Assembly: GCA_963822405.1 (NCBI GenBank)
Contig: CAWGHH010000002.1
Location: 107,703-171,702 of the forward strand
DNA length: 64,000 nucleotides
Direction of reading: 5' to 3'
Source: Candidatus Uhrbacteria bacterium
GTDB taxonomy: Bacteria > Patescibacteriota > Patescibacteriia > UBA9934
This document shows, piece by piece, positions 2,053 to 27,189 of the stretch (within the stretch, counting starts at the first letter, position 1; every line of letters starts with the position of its first letter). The translations under genes and the position numbers were made by a program. The notes beneath the pieces are model-generated. The model was not told where the DNA came from and did not search any database. It saw only the letters and a program-made list of their open reading frames with translations.

Positions 2053-3645
2053 ATGGATTCTCCCAATTCGGGTCGACCACGGCCGGTTGTACTTTTCGTC
2101 ATTGATGGTTTTGGTATTGCCCCTGATTCTGAAGGAAATGCGGTTACCAGAGCCAAGAAGCCTACTTTTGACATGTTGACTAGTCGTTATCCCGTAATGA
2201 CATTGCGAGCGTCGAGTGAGGAAGTCGGCCTTTCGTGGGGCGAGATGGGAAATTCGGAGGTTGGACACTTGGCTATTGGAGCTGGTCGAGTCTATTATCA
2301 AACTTTGCCAAGAATTAACAAAGCCGTATTAGACGGTTCTTTTGCGTCTAACCCAGCGCTTGCTAAAGCGATCTCGACGGTCAAAGCAAGCGGAGGCACT
2401 TTGCATCTCCTTGGTCTCGTGTCGAGCGGCAAAGTGCACTCGTACGACGATCATTGTTACGCCCTTTTGCGAATGTGTAAGGAGGCCGGCATTAAAAAAG
2501 TGGCGGTTCACGCAATCCTTGACGGTCGGGACACACTCTATAATTCGGGCATCGACTTCATTAAAAGCCTTGACGCAAAGATGAAGGAATACGGGGTGGG
2601 CGAGATTGCCTCGCTCATGGGTCGTTACTACGCCATGGATCGTGACAACCGTTGGGATAGAGTTGAAAAAGCTTATAACGCTGTTGCTCTAGGCAAAGCT
2701 GAAAAAACGTCTGAGGATCCATTCGTCGCTATTCAGGAAAGCTACGCCAAAGAAGTCTACGACGAAGAATTTGTGCCAACGGTGATTACTAGGGGTAACA
2801 AGCCAGTGGCAACGGTCAATTCTGGTGACGCCGTTCTATTTTTCAACTTCAGACCAGACCGTTCGCGCGAATTAACTCGAGCATTCGTTCTTCCGGCCTT
2901 CGAAAAATTCACTCGTGAGTACATTAAGGATTTAGTCTTTGTGACGATGACGGATTATGAAAAGGGTTTGCCGGTAGATGTTGCCTTTCCGCCAATTGTT
3001 ATTCAGAATACTTTGGCCGAGGTGGTGTCTACTGCTGGCTTGGTTCAGCTGCATATTGCGGAGACCGAGAAATACGCGCACGTCACTTTCTTCATGAACG
3101 GTACGCGTGAGGAGCCTTTTCCAAATGAGGATCGAGCTCTCATTCCTTCGCCCCATGTAGCGAGTTATGACACCGTGCCGGAGATGAGCGCGTTCGCGGT
3201 AACTGATCGGGTCATTGCTGAAATTGAGCGGGGGAATTACGACGTGATTATCGGCAACTTCGCAAATCCTGACATGGTTGGTCATACTGGAAACCTTGAG
3301 GCGACTATTAAGGGTGTTGAGGCAGTTGATACTTGTATAGGTAGAATTGTCGAGTCTGTACTGAAACACAACGGCGTTCTGCTTATTACAGCTGATCACG
3401 GAAACGCCGAAGAAGTTCTGAACCTCCAGACGCACGCCATGGATAAAGAACACAGTACAAATCCTGTTCCATTCTTTATCATTGGCAACCAGTTTGAGGG
3501 CAAGCCGTCTATTGCCGGTGACGTGCCAAATGGTGACCTCTCGCTCATGCCACCCGTTGGCATGCTGGCTGACGTCGCGCCAACCGTCCTAGCCATTCTT
3601 GGCCTCCCACAGCCGCCGGATATGACGGGAACGCCATTACTCTAA
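2053..3645 (+). CDS. gpmI: 2,3-bisphosphoglycerate-independent phosphoglycerate mutase
   Basis: 530 aa. N-terminus VVLFVIDGFGIAP and metal-site motif MGNSEVGHLAIGAGRV are characteristic of iPGM. Full-length protein. Confidence 0.9.
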   Translation: MDSPNSGRPRPVVLFVIDGFGIAPDSEGNAVTRAKKPTFDMLTSRYPVMTLRASSEEVGLSWGEMGNSEVGHLAIGAGRVYYQTLPRINKAVLDGSFASNPALAKAISTVKASGGTLHLLGLVSSGKVHSYDDHCYALLRMCKEAGIKKVAVHAILDGRDTLYNSGIDFIKSLDAKMKEYGVGEIASLMGRYYAMDRDNRWDRVEKAYNAVALGKAEKTSEDPFVAIQESYAKEVYDEEFVPTVITRGNKPVATVNSGDAVLFFNFRPDRSRELTRAFVLPAFEKFTREYIKDLVFVTMTDYEKGLPVDVAFPPIVIQNTLAEVVSTAGLVQLHIAETEKYAHVTFFMNGTREEPFPNEDRALIPSPHVASYDTVPEMSAFAVTDRVIAEIERGNYDVIIGNFANPDMVGHTGNLEATIKGVEAVDTCIGRIVESVLKHNGVLLITADHGNAEEVLNLQTHAMDKEHSTNPVPFFIIGNQFEGKPSIAGDVPNGDLSLMPPVGMLADVAPTVLAILGLPQPPDMTGTPLL

Positions 3646-3775: not shown

Positions 3776-5218
3776 ATGATGTCTCTCGACTCCATTTTAC
3801 AGACTGCTATTGGACGACTGGCTCACAAGGTGCCCAGGGCTCTTTTGGTTGGCGGGGCGGTTCGCGACTTGTTGCTCGGCGTGCCGACGAATGATGCTGA
3901 TGTAGAGGTCTACGGTATTAAGCCTGACGCGCTCGAAAAGATTTTGCGTGAACTGTTTACGCGGGTTGACGTCGTAGGTGCGTCGTTCGGCGTGTACAAA
4001 GTTACGCTCGACGAAGGCCGAATGCTCGACGTGGCCATTCCTCGAACCGAATCAAAAACCGGCAAAGGACATAAGGGTTTTGAAGTTATTGGTAACCCTT
4101 CGCTTGAAGTTGTCGAGGCCTTGCGTCGACGTGATTTTACGATCAACGCGATAGGCATGGATGCGTCAACGGGCGAGATCATTGATCCTTATAATGGTCG
4201 AGCTGACCTGGCCGACAAGTTATTGCGCGTGGTCGACGAGCGGACATTTGTCGAGGATCCTCTTCGGGTTTTTCGCGGTATCCAGTTTGTTGCGCGTTTT
4301 GGTTTGAAGGTCGAGCCGAAAACTTTCGCCCTCATGAAACAAATGGTCGAAAACGGCGATCTCGACGAGTTGTCAAAAGAACGCGTGACCGACGAATGGA
4401 AGAAATTACTTTTAAAATCGTCTTGTCCATCAACTGGCCTCTCAATGATGCGAGAGCTTGGCATTATTTCCCATTACTATCCCGAACTCGCCGCTTTAAT
4501 CAACACGCCACAGGAAAAAGATTGGCACCCAGAGGGGGACGTTTGGATTCATACGCTTTTGGTCGTCGACGAGTGTGTTCGAATTGGTGCGCAGTTTCCC
4601 CCTTCCAGGGGGATAAAGGGGGTCGAGAACCTCGTCGCGATGTTGGGGGCGTTGTGTCACGACCTCGGCAAACCTCTCGTCACGAAAATAATTGACGGCA
4701 AAATTCGCGCTCTCGGACATGAGGAGGCGGGTGTTGAACCGACAAAATCTTTTCTTAAAAGATTTACTTTTGGCGATGACGTTACTCATGACGTCGCTGC
4801 GATTGTTCCCAATCACCTCAAGCCAACGACACTTTATCGGTCCTTTCAAAAAGGCGAGCTAAACGAAAGGCAGTACGCTAACGCCGTTCGTCGTTTGCTA
4901 AAACGCCTCGGTGGCGTCCCGCTTGATATCTTCCTTGCAGTGACTGAGGCAGACACTCGTGGTCGGGGTTCGGCGAGTGACGTGGGTGAATACGAACCCG
5001 GCGCGTTCATGCGACAAATAATTACAAAGAATGATCTCGAAGTCGCCGCTAAGACTCCACTCGTCACCGGCGCGGAACTCATTGCCGAATTTGGTCTCGT
5101 CGAAGGGCCGAAGATTGGGGAAGTCATGAAAGCTGTCGAAGCTGCACGAGACGAAGGGGAAATTGAGACTCGTGATCAAGCGATTCGTTTTATAGAAAAT
5201 TATTTTTCCGCCCAATAA
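3776..5218 (+). CDS. cca: CCA tRNA nucleotidyltransferase (poly(A) polymerase head domain plus HD domain)
   Basis: N-terminus GGAVRDLLLG...NDADVEV is the NTase motif. An HD domain follows (HTLLVVDE...CHDLGKP). The tabulated ORF starts at 3731, but that start lies inside the repeat element; the in-frame ATG at 3776 (MMSLDS...) is more likely. Confidence 0.85.
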   Translation: MMSLDSILQTAIGRLAHKVPRALLVGGAVRDLLLGVPTNDADVEVYGIKPDALEKILRELFTRVDVVGASFGVYKVTLDEGRMLDVAIPRTESKTGKGHKGFEVIGNPSLEVVEALRRRDFTINAIGMDASTGEIIDPYNGRADLADKLLRVVDERTFVEDPLRVFRGIQFVARFGLKVEPKTFALMKQMVENGDLDELSKERVTDEWKKLLLKSSCPSTGLSMMRELGIISHYYPELAALINTPQEKDWHPEGDVWIHTLLVVDECVRIGAQFPPSRGIKGVENLVAMLGALCHDLGKPLVTKIIDGKIRALGHEEAGVEPTKSFLKRFTFGDDVTHDVAAIVPNHLKPTTLYRSFQKGELNERQYANAVRRLLKRLGGVPLDIFLAVTEADTRGRGSASDVGEYEPGAFMRQIITKNDLEVAAKTPLVTGAELIAEFGLVEGPKIGEVMKAVEAARDEGEIETRDQAIRFIENYFSAQ

Positions 5219-5386: not shown

Positions 5387-5704
5387 ATGATATACTTGTC
5401 ATATATGGAGAACGATATGACAGTTCGGGAGCTGGCCGAGATTCTTACTCATTTCGCGGAGAATATTGATCAGCGTTTTGATCGAATGGATCAACGCATG
5501 GACAGGATGGAGAATACTATAGTCACTAAGTCATACCTTGATGACAAGTTATTCGACAAAGAAAGTGACTCGGGTATGGCTTTGCGTAAAGAAGACAAAA
5601 AAGTTGACGCTGTTGTATTTAAACTCGAAGAAAAGAACATTATTAATAAACAAGAAGCAACGGTCATCACTGCTATGAGCCCGTTTGCTGTTTTACCGAA
5701 TTAA
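5387..5704 (+). CDS. Hypothetical protein
   Basis: 105-aa ORF in a gene-dense + strand run. No motif recognised. Confidence 0.3.
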   Translation: MIYLSYMENDMTVRELAEILTHFAENIDQRFDRMDQRMDRMENTIVTKSYLDDKLFDKESDSGMALRKEDKKVDAVVFKLEEKNIINKQEATVITAMSPFAVLPN

Positions 5705-6205
5705 ATGAAGTACTTCTTTGATGTTCGTGTAAGCGAGAAGATTCAGGCGTGGGGGAAGCCGCAATATAATATGTGGTACGTGTTTGCGGTTCATTTAATG
5801 TATGTTTACATTGCGAGTTGGATAATTTTTAGTGCGCTTGGTTGGCTGGTTTGGTGGACGGTGCCGGTCGTGGCGTTTTCAGCGTGGATTTTGACGTTGG
5901 GTACGCAGGTCATTGTGGCACGGGAGCGACCGAAATTCGAATCGACTACCGGGTATAAAATGTGGTGGAAGACTTACTCGTTGCCGAGCGGGCATGCGAC
6001 AATCTCCGCGGCCATAGCGACGGTGTTGCTTTTGACGACGCATTTTCCAAATTCAATTTGGTTGGTTGTTTTGGCGGTCGTTTATCTGATCATCGAAGTG
6101 CTAGTTGCTATCGGTCGAATCGTGGTCGGGGTGCATTATTTGGCTGACGTAATTGTCGGGTTTGTGCTGGGGATTGCGTTTGGGGTAATGTGGTCGGTGT
6201 TATGA
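5705..6205 (+). CDS. PAP2-family membrane phosphatase (undecaprenyl-diphosphatase / phosphatidate phosphatase type)
   Basis: 166 aa with several TM segments. PAP2 signature present: RERP...PSGH...GRIVVGVHYLADV (K/R-x6-RP, PSGH, SR-x5-H-x3-D). Confidence 0.75.
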   Translation: MKYFFDVRVSEKIQAWGKPQYNMWYVFAVHLMYVYIASWIIFSALGWLVWWTVPVVAFSAWILTLGTQVIVARERPKFESTTGYKMWWKTYSLPSGHATISAAIATVLLLTTHFPNSIWLVVLAVVYLIIEVLVAIGRIVVGVHYLADVIVGFVLGIAFGVMWSVL

Positions 6206-6936
6206 AAATTCAAGCAATCCTTCTCGCTGGTGGTCGAGGAACTAGACTAGCCCCAATAACCGACACGATGCCTAAACCGCTCGTGCCGATTTTGGGCAAG
6301 CCGATGATGAGTTACGTACTCGAACATCTGAAAGCGGCAGGGATTACTCGGGTGGCTATTTCGACAGCTTACCTCGGTCATTTAATCGAACAGACTTACG
6401 GCGATGGTTCCTTGATGGGCATGGAGTTGTCGTATATTGACGAACCGGAGCCGATGGGAACTGGCGGTTGGATGAAGCTGATCGACAAGTCGCAACTCGA
6501 CGAAAAGTTTATTGTGGCTAACGCTGATAATTTGTTTTGGATCGACGTCCCAGCCTTCTTGAAGAGACACGACGAAGTTGGCGGGATCGCGACAATCGCT
6601 GGCATTTCGATTCCGAGCGAGACTGCTAACAACTACGAGATTCTTGACGCGAACGACGAGAAGACTCGGTTAAACGCTTATGTTGATCGAAAAGATGCCG
6701 AGCCACTGCGAAATGCCTCACCGTCTGTGTTCGTTTCTTCGGGGTGGTATATTATGACACCGGCAGTGCTTGATATCGCGCCCGACGAGTTGCCACTATC
6801 GCACGAAACTCATGTTTGGCCAGCATTGTCGAAGTCTGGTCGCACGCTCGGGTTTTATCATGGTACTGAACCGTGGTTCGACTCGGGAACGCATGAGAGA
6901 CTTGCACGGGTTGAAGCGTTTTTGAAGAATCGTTGA
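6190..6936 (+). CDS. Sugar-phosphate nucleotidyltransferase (mannose-1-P guanylyltransferase / glucose-1-P thymidylyltransferase family)
   Basis: N-terminus MKIQAILLAGGRGTRLAPITDTMPKPLVPILGKPMM is the NTP-transferase G-rich loop. The likely start MKIQ at 6202 overlaps the PAP2 gene by 4 nt. Confidence 0.8.
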   Translation: MVGVMKIQAILLAGGRGTRLAPITDTMPKPLVPILGKPMMSYVLEHLKAAGITRVAISTAYLGHLIEQTYGDGSLMGMELSYIDEPEPMGTGGWMKLIDKSQLDEKFIVANADNLFWIDVPAFLKRHDEVGGIATIAGISIPSETANNYEILDANDEKTRLNAYVDRKDAEPLRNASPSVFVSSGWYIMTPAVLDIAPDELPLSHETHVWPALSKSGRTLGFYHGTEPWFDSGTHERLARVEAFLKNR

Positions 6937-6941
6937 TGGCT

Positions 6942-7308
6942 TCCACCCCGACGCCAGGAGGGGTCGCTTCCAGTATTCTATGGATGATCAAACATGCGGG
7001 GTATACATAATGGCTAACGATGGCAACCGGGTGATTTATGTTGGCATGAGCACGATGTTGCCGGAGCGCATTCAATCTCATAAAGACAAAATGATAGAGG
7101 GTTTTACGAAAAAATATAATTGTACCCGTTTGGTGTATTACGAAATTGTTCCGGATCGAGATTCGGCTCTTTATAGGGAGAAGGAGCTAAAGGGCTGGTC
7201 TAGAATGAAAAAGGCTGCACTAATTACTTCGACCAATCACGACTGGAAAGATTTGTTCGAAGAACTTATCATGCTCGCGTAGGAGCGACCCCTCCTGGCG
7301 TCGGGGTG
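6942..7308 (+). mobile_element. GIY-YIG nuclease gene (CDS 6980-7282) bracketed by a perfect 25-bp inverted repeat
   Basis: ccaccccgacgccaggaggggtcgc at 6944-6968 is the reverse complement of gcgacccctcctggcgtcggggtgg at 7286-7310. The left arm starts 6 nt after the upstream stop and the right arm 3 nt after the GIY-YIG stop. The 100-aa ORF carries GVYIMANDGNRVIYVGMSTMLPERIQSHKD (GIY-YIG / YhbQ-like). Confidence 0.6.
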
Positions 7309-7349
7309 GGAGAGAATCCGGATAGCATTAATGCCAATCGACAATCCAT

Positions 7350-8378
7350 ATGAACCTCCTTCGACTAATCGTTCGCTCGCTGGTTCTTGCTGCTGCTATT
7401 GGTCTTGTATGTCTCGTTGTCGCGATCAACCAAATTAACCGGATCTTTTTCCAATCGCCAAAACCTGGCGCCCAGGCAATTACTTTTACGGTTACGTCGG
7501 GTGATTCATTTTCAGAGGTCGACAAACGACTAAAAGAGCAGGGGATCATTGCAAACGGTTTGTGGTTTAGGGTCGCCGCCGAGTTTTCTGGTTTGACGGA
7601 TAACTTGCAGGCTGGTGTTTACTCGCTTACTCCAGATCAAAGTTACGGCGATATTCTGTCTCATCTGACTACGAGTGAAGTGACAGATATTTCGATCACT
7701 TTTCCAGAAGGTTTGACCATCGCGCAAATGGGCGAGCTCGTCCATACGAAGTTCGGTATTTCGACGGACGATTGGGCGAAGGCGACGGGTCAATATTCAA
7801 AGTTCGAAACTCATCCATTCGTTGTCCGCGCGAAGAAGCCGGATGATGTAGACCTTGAAGGCTATCTATTCCCAGATACCTATCGGTTTTTTGCTGATGC
7901 GACTGCTGACGACATTGTGAAGAAGATGATTGATACGATGGAGGCTCGTGTGGGCGAAATTTCTGCACCAACGGGAGACTCGAAAGACATGACATTTCAC
8001 GAGGTATTAACTCTAGCCTCGATCGTTCAGCGGGAAGTTCGCAAGCCTTCAGAAATGAAGAACGTGGCCGATGTTTTCTTGAAACGTTTGTCGATCGGTA
8101 TGGCACTCCAGGCAGACTCGACGGTGAACTATGTGACCGGTGGCAAGGATCCATCGATCTCTTTGAACGAGCGAGACATAATGTCTCCATACAACACCTA
8201 TAAAAATCCAGGTTTGCCTCCGGGACCGATTAGTAATCCAGGACTCGACGCATTAACGGCCGTGATTCATCCAGCAACAAATTCTTATCTATACTTTCTA
8301 ACAGACGATCTTGGAAACGTTTATTACGCGCAGACATTCGATCAACATATTCAAAATAAGGCGAGGTACCTCAAATAG
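7350..8378 (+). CDS. mltG: Endolytic murein transglycosylase MltG (YceG-like)
   Basis: 342 aa. N-terminal TM anchor, then a YceG domain with motifs LASIVQREV...ADSTVNYV...YNTYKNPGLPPGPISNPG. Confidence 0.85.
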   Translation: MNLLRLIVRSLVLAAAIGLVCLVVAINQINRIFFQSPKPGAQAITFTVTSGDSFSEVDKRLKEQGIIANGLWFRVAAEFSGLTDNLQAGVYSLTPDQSYGDILSHLTTSEVTDISITFPEGLTIAQMGELVHTKFGISTDDWAKATGQYSKFETHPFVVRAKKPDDVDLEGYLFPDTYRFFADATADDIVKKMIDTMEARVGEISAPTGDSKDMTFHEVLTLASIVQREVRKPSEMKNVADVFLKRLSIGMALQADSTVNYVTGGKDPSISLNERDIMSPYNTYKNPGLPPGPISNPGLDALTAVIHPATNSYLYFLTDDLGNVYYAQTFDQHIQNKARYLK

Positions 8379-8389
8379 ATTGTAAAAGA

Positions 8390-8773
8390 TTATTGCAACG
8401 TTTCAGTTACTTGAGTGACCGCAAAGGGACTTGTGTCCACATCTACCAGCACTCCGCGCGTGATATTGCTTTGAGTGAGTTTGATTAGACCAGAGCGAGT
8501 TGTTCCGTTCGTCGTTACAGTAAGAGTGCAGGTGGCTGTGCCGATTGGAATAGTAGCCGGTGCGTAGCTACTATTTTTCTTGATCTGAATTATAAACTCG
8601 TCAGTGCATCCCATGACAGAAGACCTTACTTTAAGGGCGATTACTTCGTCACTTGCGTCTATGAATCCTCCCATGCTCCCTTGAGCAAGAATAGAAAAAG
8701 CCAGTAGGCTGGCCGAGCCAATAATTAGCATGGTGTAGAGCAGGATAACGCCTTTGGGCGAGCGGACAAGCAT
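8390..8773 (-). CDS. Minor pilin / pseudopilin-like protein (last gene of the pilus operon)
   Basis: 127 aa. N-terminus MLVRSPKG-VILLYTMLIIG has a prepilin-like leader and hydrophobic helix but lacks Glu at +5. Abuts the upstream pseudopilin gene. Confidence 0.45.
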   Translation of the reverse strand: MLVRSPKGVILLYTMLIIGSASLLAFSILAQGSMGGFIDASDEVIALKVRSSVMGCTDEFIIQIKKNSSYAPATIPIGTATCTLTVTTNGTTRSGLIKLTQSNITRGVLVDVDTSPFAVTQVTETLQ

Positions 8774-8774
8774 A

Positions 8775-9326
8775 TTAATTTTCGGTAGTGTGTCCGGAGA
8801 GCGCGAACGTGGTATCAGCCGAGAAAGAAGAGTGACGATACGCGCCTACTCCAGGGTTCAGCATGGCCATATCATAACTGATTCTTAAACCGGATAATGT
8901 TGAACCAGTACGGATAACATCAATGCGCCATTGGGTTACGTCGATTTCTGGATCCGTCAGATAGGTTGCTGGGTTCGCACCTTTTTGCATCCGTAATCTC
9001 CGAACGTTTTGTGGCGCTCCAGTAAAAGTTACCGCCACAGTTGGTCGATCAATGGTCACGAGCTGACCAGTAGCATCCAGAAATTTCAAGACTCCATTGT
9101 CATTAGATAAAGTAGACGTACTAACATTAATCGCGTCAGCTTCAGTGAGTGAATTCTGCAACTCAAGAAACATGACTGAGGCAGTTTGTTCCATTCGAGA
9201 TCGGGCATCAAGAAGTGTATAAGTCTGCCAGAGGTTCACTAGAAACATTACGAAGGTCGGAAGAACGATCATGACAATCCCAACGTAGAGAATGGTTTCA
9301 AGCAGCGTTGTGCCTTTGTTGTTCAT
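8775..9326 (-). CDS. Type IV pilus minor pilin / pseudopilin
   Basis: Start placed at MNNKG-TTLLETILYVGIVMIVL (ATG at 9326), which is a class III signal with G-1 and E+5. It lies 1 nt after the upstream stop. The longer tabulated ORF (to 9374) adds a non-conserved extension. Confidence 0.55.
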   Translation of the reverse strand: MNNKGTTLLETILYVGIVMIVLPTFVMFLVNLWQTYTLLDARSRMEQTASVMFLELQNSLTEADAINVSTSTLSNDNGVLKFLDATGQLVTIDRPTVAVTFTGAPQNVRRLRMQKGANPATYLTDPEIDVTQWRIDVIRTGSTLSGLRISYDMAMLNPGVGAYRHSSFSADTTFALSGHTTEN

Positions 9327-9327
9327 A

Positions 9328-10209
9328 CTAAATTGGATTGAACGAGCCTGAGGTGAAGACAGAGCCATCCGCAAAAGTTACGGACATGGTCATTGAGGCA
9401 CCGGTCATTAGGTCTTCAAATTGTCCTTTGGTGATTTGCGAAGTTTGCCCAGGTGCCATGCTGAAATTTTGAATGTCGAGCACGGTTCCTGAGTGAACAC
9501 TATGGCCGGTTGGTGTGCCGGGGCCAGACGTTGACCAGACCTTAGAGTTATCAATAAAGAGTTGCTCAAATTCAGAACCGTTACTCCAGGTGAAGCTTAT
9601 TTTGTCGATTGTTACACTCGTCCCACCGGTGTTAGTAAAATATAGTTGTCTAAGCTGTTTACCTCCGTAGAATTGTGCAGCATCAACGGCAAAGCTTACT
9701 TGTCCCGCTTGTCTTGGGGCAAAGCAAGTTCCGGTCGGGTTCAGCCAGTTTGTTCGTAGCGTGGTGGTTGAAGTAGTGTGAGTTCTGCCGGCGGTATCAG
9801 TCCAGCTGGTTTCGCTGATAATTTTTTTGCTATCTGGATCAATGGTGCCGCCTGAAGCGACCACGCCACAAGAAGCATCTCGGTAGACTGAAGAGATTTT
9901 TACAATTCTGGTTGAGCCATCAGCTAATGTTTGCGGGCCGTTGGTCGTCAGCGTCCACGAGGGAGCAATAAAGGTCAAGGCGCCGGTTAGAGTATTCGTC
10001 AGACTTGCGAAAGAAATTGTTCTAAGCGCCTCTGCGCCTTCATTTGCACTCCATAGCGACTGTTGAATCTCTTGGGCTCGGTCACTACCGCGGTTAGTGA
10101 CGACCACAAAACCAATGAGAGCCGTCATGAAAGATGCGGTCACGCCAATTGCTACTATAGCCTCAAGAAGCAACGAACCTTTTTGAATAGCATTTCTTGA
10201 GTTACGCAT
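9328..10209 (-). CDS. Type IV pilus minor pilin / pseudopilin
   Basis: 293 aa. MRNSRNAIQKG-SLLLEAIVAIGV is a prepilin leader with E+5. Start and stop are coupled to neighbouring genes. Confidence 0.55.
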   Translation of the reverse strand: MRNSRNAIQKGSLLLEAIVAIGVTASFMTALIGFVVVTNRGSDRAQEIQQSLWSANEGAEALRTISFASLTNTLTGALTFIAPSWTLTTNGPQTLADGSTRIVKISSVYRDASCGVVASGGTIDPDSKKIISETSWTDTAGRTHTTSTTTLRTNWLNPTGTCFAPRQAGQVSFAVDAAQFYGGKQLRQLYFTNTGGTSVTIDKISFTWSNGSEFEQLFIDNSKVWSTSGPGTPTGHSVHSGTVLDIQNFSMAPGQTSQITKGQFEDLMTGASMTMSVTFADGSVFTSGSFNPI

Positions 10210-10212
10210 AGG

Positions 10213-10707
10213 TTATTGACGGTTAACAAAACCGTCCGGAGTAACGGTTAGCACACGCGTGGTGTCATACCAGCCGAGCGAGATCGAACCGTATTGAGCA
10301 GTGGCGCCGGACAGCGGGCTAAAAACTATCTCATGGTCATTTGTAGTATTTGGTGCCACTCCACTAAAATCGACGGCCAAAAAGTGGATGTTGTTGCTGA
10401 CTGTATAGATATCGTCACAAGCTATATCTCTGGTGGCGTAGGTGGCTCCGCAAAAAATAGTGACAGTCGTGGTTGCTCTGGTGCTTTCATTATAGGGTAT
10501 ATAAACCCCCCAAGAAGTACCTCCTAATCCGTGGCGAGCTTTGCGGGCGGCGGTCGACAGGATGTGGAGTATCTCGCGGTCGCTGGCACTTGAGGCTACG
10601 GATTGTTGAAATTTTGTTAAGGCTATTCCGGAGATCGAAAAAAGAATCCCAAATACACCAAGGGTGATAATGATTTCAAGAAATGTAAATCCTTTTGGGT
10701 TTTCCAT
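10213..10707 (-). CDS. Type IV pilus minor pilin / pseudopilin
   Basis: Start placed at MENPKG-FTFLEIIITLGVFGIL (ATG at 10707), the canonical N-methylation motif GFTxxE. It is 1 nt from the pilC stop. Confidence 0.6.
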   Translation of the reverse strand: MENPKGFTFLEIIITLGVFGILFSISGIALTKFQQSVASSASDREILHILSTAARKARHGLGGTSWGVYIPYNESTRATTTVTIFCGATYATRDIACDDIYTVSNNIHFLAVDFSGVAPNTTNDHEIVFSPLSGATAQYGSISLGWYDTTRVLTVTPDGFVNRQ

Positions 10708-10708
10708 G

Positions 10709-11791
10709 TTAGATTGAACCGACCACTTGATAGATAGGGGTAATGATCGAGAAGGCAAGTACAGCAACCATCAGTCCAATCCCGACAATCATAATAGGCT
10801 CAATAAGTGTGGTAACGTTTTTTGTGGCCTCGTCTATTTCTTGTTCGTAGAAATTCGCTAGATAGATGAGCATCTCTCCTAGGGTGCCAGTCTCCTCGCC
10901 GACGCGAATTAGACGCAAGGCAATAGGTGGAACTAGATAATTATTCGAGGTGAGAGCCAGGGTGATTGTTTTTCCTTCAGAAACGATAGTTTGCATTTTA
11001 GTAAAGAGACGCCTGTAATAGAAATTTTTAATCACGGACACGGTCACTGGTAGGGCTTCATCAAGTGGCATTCCGGTATTGAGTAAGGTACCGAGAAGTC
11101 GCATGATTCTGGCGAGGTTAGTATTTCTGACAATTTTTCCTAGAACTGGAACATGCAGTGTTAAGAAGTGGGTGATTGGTTTTACAAAAGAAAAATTCCG
11201 GATGAATAAGAAGATGATAGTTGAGGCGATCACTACGCCTGCGATTAAAATCCCATAATGTTGAACTACAAAGGCTATCCAAATCAGAACTTTTGTAGTC
11301 CAGGGCAGTGGCACGTCGAGAGATTTGAATAGCGCGGTAATATTTGGCAATACGAACACCACAATCCCGGTACAGATAATAATAGCGCTCATGAAAACAA
11401 TAGACGGATACATCATGGCGCTCCTAATTTTTACCCGGAGGTCATGTTCTTTCTGCATCTGATCGGCCAGTTGTTGAAGATTGCCTTGGAGAGTACCAGA
11501 GTTTTCACCAGCTCGAATGAGGTTTATGAAGGTGGTAGAGAAAACATGCGGAAACTTTTCAAGACCGTCAGCCAGTGTGTTGCCGCTTCTGACGGATTCT
11601 CTGAGGCTGGTTAAGATTGTTTTGAGGGAGCCTTTTGATTGACTCGAAAGAATCTCAATGGCGTCATCAATCGGTAGGCCAGATTTAAGGAGAACGGCTA
11701 AATATTTAGTAAGTAAAAGTTGCTCGGTTAGCGAAAGCTGAACCGACATTTTAGTGTATAGACTTACGGATGGGAGTTGTTTTTCGACCAT
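10709..11791 (-). CDS. pilC: Type IV pilus assembly platform protein PilC (GspF family)
   Basis: 360 aa with duplicated T2SS-F domains (LLKSGLPIDDAIEIL... and LLNTGMPLDEALPV) and 3 TM regions. Confidence 0.85.
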   Translation of the reverse strand: MVEKQLPSVSLYTKMSVQLSLTEQLLLTKYLAVLLKSGLPIDDAIEILSSQSKGSLKTILTSLRESVRSGNTLADGLEKFPHVFSTTFINLIRAGENSGTLQGNLQQLADQMQKEHDLRVKIRSAMMYPSIVFMSAIIICTGIVVFVLPNITALFKSLDVPLPWTTKVLIWIAFVVQHYGILIAGVVIASTIIFLFIRNFSFVKPITHFLTLHVPVLGKIVRNTNLARIMRLLGTLLNTGMPLDEALPVTVSVIKNFYYRRLFTKMQTIVSEGKTITLALTSNNYLVPPIALRLIRVGEETGTLGEMLIYLANFYEQEIDEATKNVTTLIEPIMIVGIGLMVAVLAFSIITPIYQVVGSI

Positions 11792-11794
11792 AAA

Positions 11795-13099
11795 CTATTC
11801 TTCCATGACGCGACTAAGTTCTTCTATGGTGGTTTCTTTGGATAATACTTTTCTCACGCCATCCTCCATGATAGTGGTCATGCCTTCTTTTTTTGCTAAC
11901 TCCTGAATTTCATCACTTGTTGCGCGCTTGTTGATTAGGCCTTGGATAGGCACGGAATTTTCTAGAACTTCATAAATACCAACTCGGCCTTTGTACCCGG
12001 TATCATTGCATTTTGTACAACCTTTTGCTTTTGCAATCTCGATTGTTTTTTTGTCTTTAAACAAGGCATCCGCCGTTTGTTTGTGCAGCATTTTCCTTCC
12101 TTCCTCGACGTTTAAGGTTTGTGTTTCGACACAATCTTTGCAGACGCGTCTAACTAGTCTTTGGGCGATAGCACAAATAAAAGTAGAAGAGATGAGGAAT
12201 GGTTCTACTCCCATATCAATAAGTCGAGGAATGCTGGTAGCCGAGTTATTAGTATGGAGAGTGGACAGGAGTTTGTGTCCTGTTAGCGCGGCGTTCACGG
12301 CAATCTTTGCTGTCTCTTCATCTCTAATTTCTCCAACCATGATGATGTCAGGATCTTGTCTTAATAGGGCTCGTAAACCGGTAGCAAAGGTTAATTTGGC
12401 CACGTGGTCAACTTGGCTTTGATTGACTCCTGGAATTTCAAATTCGACTGGATCTTCTATGGTAGCAATGTTTACTTCCCGTCTATTGATTACTTCAAGA
12501 ATGGCGTAAATACTAGTAGTTTTTCCGCTACCAGTTGGACCAGTAGCCAGAATCATGCCCCACGGTTTTTTAATAGCTCTTGTGATACGCGCCAAATCTT
12601 CTTCGCAGAAACCAAGCTGTTCAAGGGTTAATTGGTGCGATTGGCTCGAGAGAAGACGCAGAACTCCCTTTTCACCTAAGGAATCTGGGAGGATCGAGAC
12701 GCGAACGTCTACATCTCCAAGTGGGGAGGCGAATTTGAATCTGCCGTCTTGTGGGCCGTGATGCTCGTCAGTGCGCATTCTGGTTAAGATCTTGATACGA
12801 GCCACTAGCTGGGTATGGAGAGCTGTATCTAAAGTGAATTCATCATGAAGAATGCCGTCAATTCGAATACGAATAATGGCGTGATCTTTCCAGGGCTCAA
12901 GGTGGACGTCTGAGGCCCGAGCAGCATGGGCAAAGATCATGATCATTTCAAAGAGTCTGATGGCTGCATCTGAGGTGGTACCTGCGGTTGCCTTTACGAT
13001 GAGATCTTCAACATCTTTTTTTGACGGAAGTTTAGCAGTTGCAACTTTAGAGGTTTTTAAGGCTGGGGCGCTAATTTTAGTTTTTTTCTCGACGGCCAT
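11795..13099 (-). CDS. pilB: Type IV pilus assembly ATPase PilB (GspE family)
   Basis: Walker A GPTGSGKTT, Asp/His boxes, and a C-terminal tetracysteine motif (CKDC...CTKC). Likely start MAVEKK at 13099; the tabulated ORF extends to 13165. Confidence 0.9.
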   Translation of the reverse strand: MAVEKKTKISAPALKTSKVATAKLPSKKDVEDLIVKATAGTTSDAAIRLFEMIMIFAHAARASDVHLEPWKDHAIIRIRIDGILHDEFTLDTALHTQLVARIKILTRMRTDEHHGPQDGRFKFASPLGDVDVRVSILPDSLGEKGVLRLLSSQSHQLTLEQLGFCEEDLARITRAIKKPWGMILATGPTGSGKTTSIYAILEVINRREVNIATIEDPVEFEIPGVNQSQVDHVAKLTFATGLRALLRQDPDIIMVGEIRDEETAKIAVNAALTGHKLLSTLHTNNSATSIPRLIDMGVEPFLISSTFICAIAQRLVRRVCKDCVETQTLNVEEGRKMLHKQTADALFKDKKTIEIAKAKGCTKCNDTGYKGRVGIYEVLENSVPIQGLINKRATSDEIQELAKKEGMTTIMEDGVRKVLSKETTIEELSRVMEE

Positions 13100-13236
13100 A
13101 TATGCATTATTATAGTTGATCGACGGGCATTTTGTGATGGTGGGTGTGTATGAGGTTATGCACATTTAGTGATGGTTCGATCTCATGTTGGCAAATGTAG
13201 ATTATAATACGGTTATTCTTAACGAATGAATTTTCT

Positions 13237-21273: not shown

Positions 21274-21764
21274 ATCCAATCTCAACAGATGTTCGAGTAG
21301 GCGCTGATGATAACGGCGTCATAGCCGGTGACTATATCCGTGGAACTTCTTGGACTACGGTTTATTACGTTGACGCTGACATGATTCGTCATCCAATCAT
21401 TGATCACCAGACATACTTTACTTACGAGAATTCATGGGACAAAGTGATTGTGTTGGCTGACGAGAAGTTACGCGATTACCCAATGGGGAGCTTATTGCTT
21501 CCTAAGGCGGGAACAGTTTTAGTGAAGTTTGCGTCTATGAATACGGTCTATGCACTTGAGGCTGGAGCGAACGGCGCGACAGTTTTGCGCCTTGTTCCTA
21601 GTGAGGCCATGGCAGCAACTGTGTTTGGTGGCCACTGGGTAGATTACGTGATTGATTTGCCTGTTGTTCTCTATCCGCACTTTAAGAAGGGAGCGGCGGT
21701 TGATTCAAACTTCGTTGTTGACCTGAGCAAGATGAAGACTCGTTTGTCACTAAACAATAATTAA
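21243..21764 (+). pseudogene. Frameshifted C-terminal portion of the 19678 gene (conserved C-terminal domain shared with the 1863-aa protein)
   Basis: The alternate frame is open from 21243 and reads ...IAGDYIRGTSWTTVYYVDADMIRHPIIDHQTYFTYENSWD...LLLPKAGTVLVKFASMNTVYALE...VLRLVPSEAMAATVFGGHWVDYVIDL. This aligns along its length with residues ~1690-1815 of the 27190-32733 protein (GDYMRAQNIDTVYCIDA...MLPKAGVTLVKFRSSPIVYRVIE...VLRPLASEAVAKLNYGENWSDYIIDV). A 1-nt shift near 21245-21270 would fuse the two ORFs. Confidence 0.55.
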
Positions 21765-25145: not shown

Positions 25146-26557
25146 CAAAACGGACAAGGCCTTCGAAGTCTACGCCCTACTCCCTACACGCTACACCCTT
25201 TGATGTGGTAATCATCGGTGGCGGTGGTGCTGGTATTGCAGCCGCTGAAGGGGCAAAAGCCGCTGGGGCAAAAAAGATTTGTTTGATTGAACCAGCTGAA
25301 CTTGGTGGCGAATGTCCGTACAGGGCCTGCGTGCCGACGAAGTCATTGCTTGCTTCGGCGAAAATGTTTCGAGTTCTTCGCGAACACGGCGCCGAGTTCG
25401 GAGTGATTGCGCGAGGCGTTCGATTCGATCTGAAGAAAGCCATGGCGCGAAAAGAATCAGTTATTGAGGCTATTACTGGTGACGACCGGATGACAAAATA
25501 TCTGGCTAGTTTAGGGGTTGACGTGATAAAGGGCAAAGCAGTTTTTGAAGATGCTCATACTATTCGAGCTGCTTCTCGAGTGATTAAGGCAAAGGCTATT
25601 GTTATTGCGACCGGAACCGTCGACGCCATTCCGCCGATTGCCGGAATCGACGAGGTTGAGGTTCTTGGGTATGCCGACGTTGTGAATCTCCCACGTTTGC
25701 CTAAATCAATTGCCATTATCGGCGGTGGTCCGGTTGGTTCAGAGTTCGCTACTTTCTTTGGTTCGGTTGGCGTGAAAACTACGTTGTTCGAGCCAGCCGA
25801 TCACATCTTGTCGCGCGAAGAAGAAGAGTTGTCGCTTTTGGCCGAGACGTCACTTCGCGAGACTGGTGTGACCGTACTAACAAAAACTAAAGTACTTGGC
25901 TTACAAAATGAAAAACGGGGAACGCGCGTCACATACCAAACCGGTCGCCGGCCACGCCAGTACATTTGGGTAGAGGCTGTTATGCTCGCCGCCGGCAAAA
26001 AACCGAACCTTGCTAATCTCGCTATCGAGCGCGCCAAAGTTAAGGCCGACAAAACTGGTCGAGTCGTCATTAATAGCAAACTACAAACAAACGCCAAACA
26101 CATCTTCCTGGCCGGCGACGTTTCCGGCCGAATGATGTTCACGCATACCGCGCATTACGAGGGCTACATCGCAGGCTGGAATGCGGCTGGCGGTTCCGCC
26201 CTCGACACAGACCTTTCCGTCATTCCTCGCGTCACCTTCGTTGACCCCGAACTCGCCTCCGTCGGTCTCACTCAGGCCGAGGCGGTTACGGCCGGGTTCG
26301 AGACGATTGCGTACCGCACGCCTATGCATGTCCTCGCGCGTTCGGCGATCGATGGCAAACAAACCGGTTTGCTAAAAGTAGTCGTCGACAAAAAAACTGA
26401 TCAAATTCTCGGCGCCCATCTACTCGGCGAACGGGCAGGGGAGGTGATTCATGAGCTTGCCATCGCCATGCGTCATTCATTGCCGTTCAATGAAGTTCGT
26501 TCCGGCCTTCGGGCGTACCCAACTTATTCGGAAGCGATTTCTGCGCTCGACGTATGA
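25142..26557 (+). CDS. FAD-dependent pyridine nucleotide-disulfide oxidoreductase (dihydrolipoyl dehydrogenase / mercuric reductase family)
   Basis: FAD motif FDVVIIGGGGAGIAAA, redox-active CPYRACVPTK, a second Rossmann motif IAIIGGGPVGSEFA, and a C-terminal dimerisation domain with HxxxxE. Confidence 0.8.
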   Translation: MTKRTRPSKSTPYSLHATPFDVVIIGGGGAGIAAAEGAKAAGAKKICLIEPAELGGECPYRACVPTKSLLASAKMFRVLREHGAEFGVIARGVRFDLKKAMARKESVIEAITGDDRMTKYLASLGVDVIKGKAVFEDAHTIRAASRVIKAKAIVIATGTVDAIPPIAGIDEVEVLGYADVVNLPRLPKSIAIIGGGPVGSEFATFFGSVGVKTTLFEPADHILSREEEELSLLAETSLRETGVTVLTKTKVLGLQNEKRGTRVTYQTGRRPRQYIWVEAVMLAAGKKPNLANLAIERAKVKADKTGRVVINSKLQTNAKHIFLAGDVSGRMMFTHTAHYEGYIAGWNAAGGSALDTDLSVIPRVTFVDPELASVGLTQAEAVTAGFETIAYRTPMHVLARSAIDGKQTGLLKVVVDKKTDQILGAHLLGERAGEVIHELAIAMRHSLPFNEVRSGLRAYPTYSEAISALDV

Positions 26558-27096
26558 AGAAACTTCTGCACCTCGAAGAGGAGAAACTGGCTAGACTTAA
26601 AGAACAAAATGCAAAAATTTGGTTGACGTTTACTAGGACTCGACCAGCCTGGGGCATGATCCCGGTGCGTATTGTATTCGGGGTTGTTTTGATACTCGAG
26701 GGCATCTCGCGCTTTACGTTTGTTCGACATAACAAGGATAGCTTGCTCGCTCAGCTGCCACACGAATGGCAACTTCCGTTGATTGTCATATTTTCGGTTA
26801 TCGAAATTGTCGGTGGAGCAATGACTATTCCCGGCGTTATGACCCGTTTTGTTGGCATGGCAATTCTGATCGAGATGTTCTTTGCGATCATGTTCGAGCG
26901 TATTCCGTTGGCTTTCAGCGGTGACCTGCAAACGCAAATTTTATTGTTCGGCATTGCCTCACTTCTTATGTTTTCCGGCCCCGGACGATACTCCGTCGAC
27001 GGGGCGATTGCTCGTTACATTTTGCAGAGATACCCAATCGAGAAATGGCGTCTTTATGTTTACGCCGAAACGCCGATAACCAAGTGGTGGGAATGA
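26554..27096 (+). CDS. DoxX-family membrane protein
   Basis: 180 aa with 4 TM segments and a C-terminal GPGRYSVDG motif typical of DoxX. Overlaps the oxidoreductase by 4 nt, suggesting translational coupling. Confidence 0.6.
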   Translation: MKKLLHLEEEKLARLKEQNAKIWLTFTRTRPAWGMIPVRIVFGVVLILEGISRFTFVRHNKDSLLAQLPHEWQLPLIVIFSVIEIVGGAMTIPGVMTRFVGMAILIEMFFAIMFERIPLAFSGDLQTQILLFGIASLLMFSGPGRYSVDGAIARYILQRYPIEKWRLYVYAETPITKWWE

Positions 27097-27189
27097 AGTC
27101 GATTTCTCGTTCAGTCATCCTGAGCTTCGCGAAGGATCTGATTGGATAACTCCCATAATCTTGATGAATATACGCTATACTATTCGCAT

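Follow-up and report, generated by a model that had tools for sequence, protein, structure and literature searches.

In the 64-kb stretch of Candidatus Uhrbacteria DNA analyzed here (hereafter designated the window; all other loci carry L-numbers, such as L001 and L107), an open reading frame (ORF) for a 100-aa GIY-YIG protein lies between an NTP_transferase gene and a YceG/MltG gene (mltG) and is bracketed by two inverted copies of the perfect 25-mer CCACCCCGACGCCAGGAGGGGTCGC (Table 1). We assign the protein to the Ssn family of site-specific single-stranded DNA (ssDNA) endonucleases and find that each of the two arms is built as a hairpin. By analogy with the characterized members of this family, the locus is very probably an SRM-ssn-SRM cassette (SRM, Ssn-related motif), in which the arms would be two opposed copies of the hairpin that the enzyme most likely recognizes.

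Table 1 Coordinates of the cassette and of related features in the window
Feature	Position	Strand	Description
NTP_transferase gene	6190..6936		Upstream of the cassette
Left arm	6940..6968	+	SRM hairpin, head TCC; 25-mer part 6943-6967; assigned by fold and by covariation over 17 copies
ssn gene	6980..7282	+	Single-domain GIY-YIG nuclease, Ssn family; predicted catalytic residues Y9, Y20, and E67
Right arm	7284..7312	-	Same SRM hairpin, head CCC instead of TCC; 25-mer part 7285-7309
Extra segment relative to sister junctions	6937..7349	.	Cassette with 3 nt before the left arm and 37 unassigned nt after the right arm (7313-7349)
YceG/MltG gene (mltG)	7350..8378		Downstream of the cassette
Solitary SRM-like hairpin GTCATCCTGAGCTTCGCGAAGGATC	27114..27138	+	Other sequence class; found by a generic hairpin scan

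Geometry of the inverted arms

Beyond the perfect 25-mer, the complementarity of the two arms lengthens to 29 nt with one T:G position. The left arm starts 3 nt after the stop codon of the NTP_transferase gene (TGA, 6934–6936) and the right arm 1 nt after that of the GIY-YIG gene (TAG, 7280–7282). The initial annotation had described both the perfect 25-bp inverted repeat around the 100-aa ORF and the start of each repeat within a few nucleotides of a stop codon, and it was correct in both respects, although its coordinates were too high by one. No third copy of the 25-mer was found in the window with up to three mismatches allowed, and no comparable perfect 25-mer arose in 100 dinucleotide-preserving shuffles. 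Moreover, an independent assembly (Logan ERR12037365 contig, L111) carries the same cassette with both arms perfect, so that the repeat is no assembly artefact or fold-back. Between the right arm and the start of mltG, 37 nt have no counterpart in the empty sister junctions described below.

The nuclease and its published relatives

Ssn endonucleases were described with SsnA as the founder of the family (Chenal et al., Nat Commun 2025, 16:2388, PMC11893778). SsnA of Neisseria meningitidis (NMV_0044) is a monomeric protein of 94 aa with a single GIY-YIG domain (CDD cd10448), which binds the NTS hairpin repeat CGTCATTCCCGCGMAVGCGGGAATCYRG solely as ssDNA and on one strand only, cuts a few nucleotides upstream of the repeat, is inactive on double-stranded DNA (dsDNA) and RNA, and does not bind RNA (PMC11893778). 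The C directly 3′ of the NTS palindrome is critical for binding, and the three bases 5′ of it (GTC) are critical for cleavage; the residues mutated in that study are Y6, Y17, and E64 (PMC11893778). SRMs, searched for with the pattern HGTCWYN(0-2)YYVSBRHN(0-5)WNVSBRGN(0-2)RNCYNB, were reported near 71% of the ssn homologue genes and on both sides in 42% (PMC11893778). The authors called the NTS-ssnA-NTS layout 'identical to' that of insertion sequences (IS), compared it with repetitive extragenic palindromes and their associated tyrosine transposases (REP/RAYT), and raised transposition by Ssn-type units as a hypothesis (PMC11893778).

The sole Pfam domain of the window protein is GIY-YIG (PF01541, residues 6–76, E value 2e-15). 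As the Neisseria reference, we used the N. gonorrhoeae orthologue of N. meningitidis SsnA, obtained by a tblastn search of a plasmid collection; two N. gonorrhoeae chromosomes filed in that collection gave one match each, namely the SsnA orthologue, which is bracketed by canonical NTS repeats. The window protein aligns with this orthologue over 92 aa with 45% identity, 68% positives, and 0 gaps (E value 5e-31), and Y6, Y17, and E64 of SsnA align with Y9, Y20, and E67, the spacing being identical (11 and 47 residues). An alignment of 29 homologues shows no variation at Y20, R30, H34, E67, or N86, and Y9 is kept in at least 90% of the sequences. The only relative in the PDB is the UPF0213 protein BH0048 (1zg2) of the YhbQ/YazA group, which likewise is a stand-alone GIY-YIG domain of about 100 aa but belongs to a subfamily other than cd10448/Ssn; since its similarity is marginal (E value 0.006), the label 'YhbQ/YazA-like' of the initial annotation is imprecise. 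NCBIfam held no family-specific model for the protein and gave just sub-threshold fragments of UvrC and intron endonucleases, including a weak match of residues 7–37 to a group I intron endonuclease model (E value 0.0015, far below the cut-off). By every sequence test run, the window protein is an orthologue-level relative of Neisseria SsnA.

The public gene calls (P0001 and that of L111) start at an internal ATG at 7010, giving a product of 90 aa (7010–7282), and thereby lack both Y9, the catalytic tyrosine of 'GIY', and the first strand. The homologue alignments support the 100-aa form, starting from the ATG at 6980, as the probable product. No second ssn gene was found anywhere in the 64-kb window.

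Two other affiliations of the protein were considered and dropped. A search with the PADLOC library for membership in a defence system returned just partial matches to the GIY-YIG core of UzuA and PDC-S14, which places the protein in none of the systems of that library, and the viral collection, searched for a link to phages, gave 4 distant matches and no more. Separately, plasmid p1 of Planktothrix agardhii (L110; NZ_LR882964.1, 18847–19131) carries an ssn homologue with 51% identity within a defence island, where its neighbors are a type IIL MmeI restriction-modification gene on one side and drmA, the DISARM helicase gene, on the other. In N. gonorrhoeae 2022NG-0032 (L109; NZ_CP119142.1, 1881113–1882588, from a 2.17-Mb record filed as a plasmid), the frame of the SsnA orthologue (601–876) lacks a start codon of its own, the nearby ATG at 600 being in another frame, so that the 5′ end of the gene looks frameshifted.

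Each arm as a local DNA hairpin

Both arms follow the plan TCC-A-CCCC-GA-C-GCCA-G-GA-GGGG-T-C, with CCC as the head of the right arm, and form a hairpin with a 5-bp stem (A-CCCC/GGGG-T), tandem G.A/A.G, and a C:G pair closing the GCCA loop. The hairpin was analyzed by covariation in an alignment of 17 copies of the arm subclass of the window, which had been picked without regard to their stems. In this alignment, 97% of the cells were paired, and 3 of the 6 pairs showed compensatory double changes (CCCC/GGGG, TCCC/GGGA, and TGCC/GGCA, together with a change of the apical C:G to G:C), whereas the loop bases varied freely; none of 500 shuffles matched the observed covariation score. Over all the arm classes, a head was followed by its own stem complement 374 times, as compared with 90 times on average for foreign stems. 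This head-anchored test and the curated alignment replaced a first covariation script, which was anchored on the 3′ CGAA, caught one class only (TTGC/GCAA), and was uninformative. Moreover, the two arms of an ORF-less pair found in a sister genome (L107; see below) are unlike each other (CCCC...GGGG and TCCC...GGGA), each of them keeping its own stem. Since the same site is present twice in inverted orientation, the long-range complementarity between the arms would be a by-product and not a selected 29-bp stem. Collectively, the arms are predicted local hairpins, not the halves of one long stem.

As for the bases adjoining the palindrome, the C that follows it (GGGGT-C) is present in both arms of the window, and A occupies this position in the close relatives L001 and L006. 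In L007, L011, and L019, the identical core has the triplet GTC in front of it.

Rfam searches at the gathering thresholds (whole window) and at E values up to 10 (6850–7400 and 11 related loci) left the motif unmatched. Other candidate elements were tried and rejected. A weak 5-bp hairpin (6957–6971) overlapping the left arm might be read as a terminator, but a T-run is missing from the right arm and the region contains few terminator-like sites. A 'COG2827 RNA motif' was dropped, as no Rfam family matched, and none of the consensus sequences of attC, hepatitis delta virus-like and twister ribozymes, and riboswitches, considered for the solitary copies, fits or finds support in Rfam.

The left arm also contains a perfect Shine-Dalgarno-like AGGAGG (6956–6961), 18 nt from the start codon of the window ssn gene, and the complement CCTCC lies in the right arm (7291–7295). 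Solitary copies of the hairpin in the sister metagenome-assembled genome (MAG) that carries L107 (among L008–L017) terminate in ...AGGAGGGGTAGCATGG and are followed by an ATG at a distance of 6 nt; in L012, the ATG at this distance opens a short frame only, upstream of the real start.

Hairpin-bracketed ssn genes across the family

The closest homologues, P0002, P0003, and P0004, share 73, 71, and 67% identity with the window protein. In L001 and L006, the ssn gene has a PMSR gene on one side and, on the other, a hypothetical gene next to which greA lies; its neighbors in L002 are a DUF4349 gene and a transketolase gene, of which the C-terminal half is present. All three are bracketed by inverted repeats homologous to the window arms. 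L001 and L006 share the core CCACCCCGACGCCAGGAGGGG with the window, and the version in L002 has diverged, each change in one arm being matched in the other. A metagenome scan using the alignment of 29 family members as the query yielded 80 further loci with 45–58% identity. In the sample of about 87 homologue loci, hairpins beside the gene were frequent; the strongest inverted repeat spanning the gene beat every shuffle by a clear margin in 50 of 86 loci, and SRM-like hairpins were enriched about five-fold (361 in the loci vs approximately 66 in shuffles). Thus, the bracket, which the initial annotation had regarded as unusual, is common among the homologues and is a published hallmark of the Ssn family (PMC11893778).

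The arms found around the homologues fall into several classes, including GTCATTGCGAG...CGAAGCAATC, GTCATCCTGAG...CGAAGGATC, GTCATTCCCGCGAAGGCGGGAATC, and GTCATCTCGACCGAAGGGAGAGATC. All the classes share a common plan, which the window arm fits, consisting of a three-base head, an A...T palindrome with a class-specific four-base stem, an internal loop of the form GA...GA(A), and an apex that varies, with C after the palindrome. The NTS consensus is one of the classes found around the homologues (L048, L084, L091, and L097). Among about 100 loci, the published SRM pattern matched ssn-flanking hairpins just in these four loci of the TTCCCGCG class, and three more matches (L090, L102, and L108) lay away from ssn-flanking hairpins; its one match in the window (21317–21349) is also away from the arms. 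The published pattern is a search heuristic and not a definition.

When the orientations of the nearest flanking hairpins (upstream, downstream) were compared, 33 loci showed (+,−), as in the window, vs 16 for the other three two-sided arrangements combined, namely (−,+), as in Neisseria (6 loci), (−,−) (6 loci), and (+,+) (4 loci). The two flanking hairpins of a locus were often unlike each other in their apical parts.

Some further hairpins and neighbors were noted during the survey. The solitary hairpin at the distal site in the window (Table 1), whose class also flanks many ssn homologues, sits in a 45-nt spacer between a DoxX/DoxD-like gene (26554–27096) and an ORF of 1863 aa. In L025, the ssn homologue has on either side (156–369 and 2454–2625) a tandem array of 4–5 directly oriented SRM hairpins, which recur regularly at intervals of about 46 nt. 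L001 contains a complete group I intron (5514–5764; Rfam RF00028, 86 bits, E value 1.7e-20) approximately 2 kb downstream of its ssn cassette.

Gain, loss, and dispersal of the cassette

As proposed in the initial annotation, the orthologous NTP_transferase/mltG loci were compared and related genomes were searched for the repeat. Four syntenic sister loci were found via the closest MltG homologues, each with genes for a CCA-adding enzyme, PAP2, NTP_transferase, and MltG. At the NTP_transferase–mltG junction, where the window has the full cassette in 413 nt from stop to start, the two genes are 4 nt apart in L105/L106 (MltG identity to the window, 82%) and overlap by 4 nt (ATGA) in L108 (79%); that is, the junction is empty in two sister genomes. 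In L107 (77%), the same junction holds an 81-nt spacer composed of the left arm, 11 nt, and the right arm, with no ORF (approximately 3932–4001). A similar ORF-less remnant is found in L001 (2937–2990), just upstream of the full L001 cassette. The L107 arms carry the tails GGGGTAGCAT (left) and TAGAAT (right), which match those of the corresponding arms of the L001 cassette, located at another locus, and are unlike the TCGC tails of the window; this argues for two subtypes having occupied one junction independently of each other. A single-gene neighbor-joining tree placed the window with the empty L105 and the ORF-less pair of L107 with the empty L108, a topology that would call either for two separate gains or for a single gain with two precise losses.

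In a scan of 185,579 species genomes, a 20-nt core of the arm occurred at 14 places, all of them solitary or paired hairpins with no ssn gene within the fetched stretch. Seven of these places are on contigs of the L107-carrying sister MAG, GCA_964348985.1, and the remainder belong to MAGs carrying the labels Anaerolineales, WOR-3, Hyphomicrobiales, and Saccharibacteria. The sister MAG (L008, L010, L012–L014, L017, and L107) is titled 'uncultured Gammaproteobacteria'; its gene order and 77–85% protein identity fit the Patescibacteria-type window, so that this label is probably wrong. At one of the other places, in the MAG labelled Saccharibacteria, a solitary copy (L018, 2913–2948) is identical over 36 nt to the right arm of the L001 cassette (3349–3384). 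Two MAGs whose labels, Anaerolineales and Hyphomicrobiales, stand for different phyla (L007, 848–915, and L019, 246–327) have in common an inverted pair of two different hairpins, with one and the same interior and unlike stems (GTCA-CCCC...GGGG-TC and GTCA-TGCC...GGCA-TC) and a variable stem between them, an arrangement resembling bacterial interspersed mosaic elements (BIMEs).

Inspection by eye revealed no target-site duplication at any of the junctions examined. From these comparisons, we infer that the unit behaves as a REP/RAYT-like or IS-like element, which would be gained and lost at intergenic junctions. The proposal of a mobile mini-cassette in the initial annotation thus stands in so far as the unit comes and goes, has an ORF-less pair resembling a miniature inverted-repeat transposable element (MITE) in a third sister genome, and shares its arms with other contexts; its likening to a homing endonuclease does not (see below).

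Proposed mechanism and points against the assignment

A sequence of steps may be proposed for the cassette, of which the first alone was observed here, the others being drawn from the enzymes of Neisseria, N. elongata, N. wadsworthii, and Wolbachia. When the DNA becomes single-stranded, each arm would fold alone into the hairpin described above (5-bp stem, tandem G.A/A.G, and GCCA loop). By analogy, Ssn would then bind the hairpin only on the strand reading 5′-YCC-ACCCC...GGGGT-C and would cut a few nucleotides 5′ of it. With the arms oriented (+,−), the two predicted cut sites would fall just outside the cassette, on opposite strands.

The cassette resembles the Ssn/NTS system in having a single-domain GIY-YIG enzyme of about 94–100 aa with the same Tyr/Tyr/Glu spacing, oriented hairpin repeats in inverted orientation on both sides of the gene, and a palindrome that opens with A, ends with T, and is followed by C, with solitary copies in related genomes. 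However, several points weigh against the assignment of the locus to this system. The hairpin belongs to another class, with a shorter stem containing tandem G.A in place of the 8-bp ATTCCCGC stem of NTS, and the published degenerate SRM pattern gives no match at either arm. The head triplet is TCC in the left arm and CCC in the right arm, where the cleavage-governing triplet of Neisseria is GTC; moreover, the arms at the Neisseria locus are oriented (−,+), opposite to those of the window, and therefore the deductions that depend on orientation may not carry over to the window. Folded as DNA, the YCCA-head strand of each arm gives the expected hairpin, but its energy is modest (−6.2 kcal/mol), with z-scores of −0.6 and −1.2 that are inseparable from those of shuffles. 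To judge by the names that its closest MltG homologues carry, the host is a member of Patescibacteria (candidate phyla radiation), and only two copies of the hairpin class occur in the 64-kb window, the high copy number having been shown for the sister MAG. As for mobility, it rests on comparative states, with neither a target-site duplication nor an excision product seen, and the four-genome tree is suggestive only, being built from a single gene and without support values, with the other two genes giving different nearest neighbors.

Alternative explanations

The initial annotation had also considered a large RNA stem. In this explanation, the arms would pair in a read-through transcript as a stem of 29–31 bp, which would sequester the ORF or create an RNase III site and thereby couple or limit the expression of the nuclease. 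Indeed, the long-range stem forms part of the predicted RNA minimum-energy fold of 6930–7325 (z-score, −5.5), each arm lies close behind a stop codon, the AGGAGG of the left arm has its complement in the right arm, and the complementarity in L006 reaches over the start and stop codons. However, such a stem follows trivially from a perfect inverted repeat and would be a by-product of the inverted copies. In the 32 loci with strong inverted repeats, arm-to-arm mismatches were G:T in 33 cases and A:C in 38, thus showing no wobble bias for the sense transcript. The compensatory changes lie inside the arms and not across them, the apical parts of the flanking hairpins often differ, 16 of the 49 two-sided loci are otherwise oriented, and the motif also occurs singly, away from any ssn gene, and has no Rfam match even at E values up to 10; in addition, SsnA does not bind RNA (PMC11893778). 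An RNA device is accordingly a very improbable account of the bracket, though a secondary effect of the stem on expression is possible. Still less probable, to the point of being hardly credible, is a free-standing GIY-YIG homing endonuclease gene, which would cut the empty dsDNA allele and be copied in by repair, the repeats being incidental. The GIY-YIG fold is common to enzymes of the I-TevI type, the intron-endonuclease model of NCBIfam gives the weak match noted above, and one site is polymorphic for presence and absence; in contrast, the 100-aa protein lacks the DNA-binding domain to which the nuclease domain of I-TevI-type enzymes is linked, the gene is intergenic with no intron or intein and no Rfam match, the characterized relatives leave dsDNA uncut, and the repeats are conserved, covarying, and found family-wide.

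An autonomous transposable element, in which Ssn would be the transposase of an IS-like unit with hairpin ends, moving by a single-strand 'peel and paste' as in IS200/IS605, with the ORF-less pairs and single hairpins as non-autonomous derivatives, overlaps with our assignment of the locus as an SRM-ssn-SRM cassette and adds that the nuclease catalyzes the movement. It would account for one junction in empty, filled, and ORF-less states, the same element type at different loci, the dispersed solitary copies, and the predicted cuts outside the cassette in the dominant (+,−) orientation, and it agrees with the hypothesis raised in PMC11893778. On the other hand, GIY-YIG hydrolytic nucleases have no known strand-transfer chemistry, the cassette encodes no ligase or recombinase partner, the inverted cleavable sites lie on opposite strands whereas both ends of IS200/IS605 are processed on one strand, neither a target-site duplication nor a conserved target was seen, and host recombination at the repeats could instead explain the gain and loss. 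This explanation is unlikely. That SRM-ssn-SRM cassettes might constitute an active mobile family in bacteria of the candidate phyla radiation, with the ssn nuclease itself driving excision or insertion and with ORF-less pairs and solitary hairpins as non-autonomous members, is a bolder proposal and a rather more doubtful one; if true, nuclease-driven movement would represent a new transposition chemistry, and the occupation of one junction by two subtypes (window and L107) would represent site-preferential insertion.

Known mobile elements offer partial parallels to the SRM-ssn-SRM cassette. As in the REP/BIME elements with RAYTs (REPtrons, of the IS200/IS605 superfamily), one small gene stands between inverted hairpin-forming repeats, further copies of the repeat lie dispersed in intergenic regions, alone or as inverted pairs, and the characterized relatives of the window enzyme act on ssDNA hairpins. 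Unlike RAYTs, however, the window enzyme is a GIY-YIG hydrolytic nuclease and not an HUH/Y1 transposase; there is no HUH/Y1 gene between the repeats, the window enzyme is not known to form a covalent intermediate or to transfer strands, and no cleavage tetranucleotide of the GTAG type is present. The initial annotation had held that its reading would fail if the 25-mer were a common terminator or REP element unrelated to the gene; the repeat is REP-like, but it is tied to the ssn gene. Similarly, the ORF-less two-arm derivatives in L107, where they occupy the cassette junction of the window, and in L001 are MITE-like, but the junctions showed no target-site duplication, each arm has a structure of its own and also occurs singly, and no classical transposase is known.

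Implications for the family

By analogy with Neisseria, the cassette may, speculatively, serve to control incoming or exposed ssDNA, for example in natural transformation. Directly downstream of mltG lies a type IV pilus-like cluster on the reverse strand (8390–13165), comprising pilin-like ORFs, T2SSF (10709–11791), and a T2SSE ATPase (11795–13165), which is conserved in the sister locus L105. The cluster may have a bearing on DNA uptake, but its position next to the cassette is in itself no proof of a link.

The architecture of the bracketed gene was already explained in 2025, and the locus is a new bacterial example of it, from Patescibacteria; the Ssn/hairpin system would thus reach into this group. 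Its hairpin class is missed by the published pattern, and therefore surveys based on that pattern undercount the family. Every distinct pair of hairpin and enzyme is a candidate for a new specificity in the proposed ssDNA-cutting toolbox (PMC11893778), and the hairpin YCC-ACCCC-GA-C-GCCA-G-GA-GGGGT-C with its enzyme is one such pair. The sole part that goes beyond that study is the comparative evidence for mobility, which is indirect: the empty, full, and ORF-less states at one junction, together with the same subtype at different loci, provide natural-history evidence for the IS- or REP-like mobility of Ssn units that was only hypothesized in PMC11893778.

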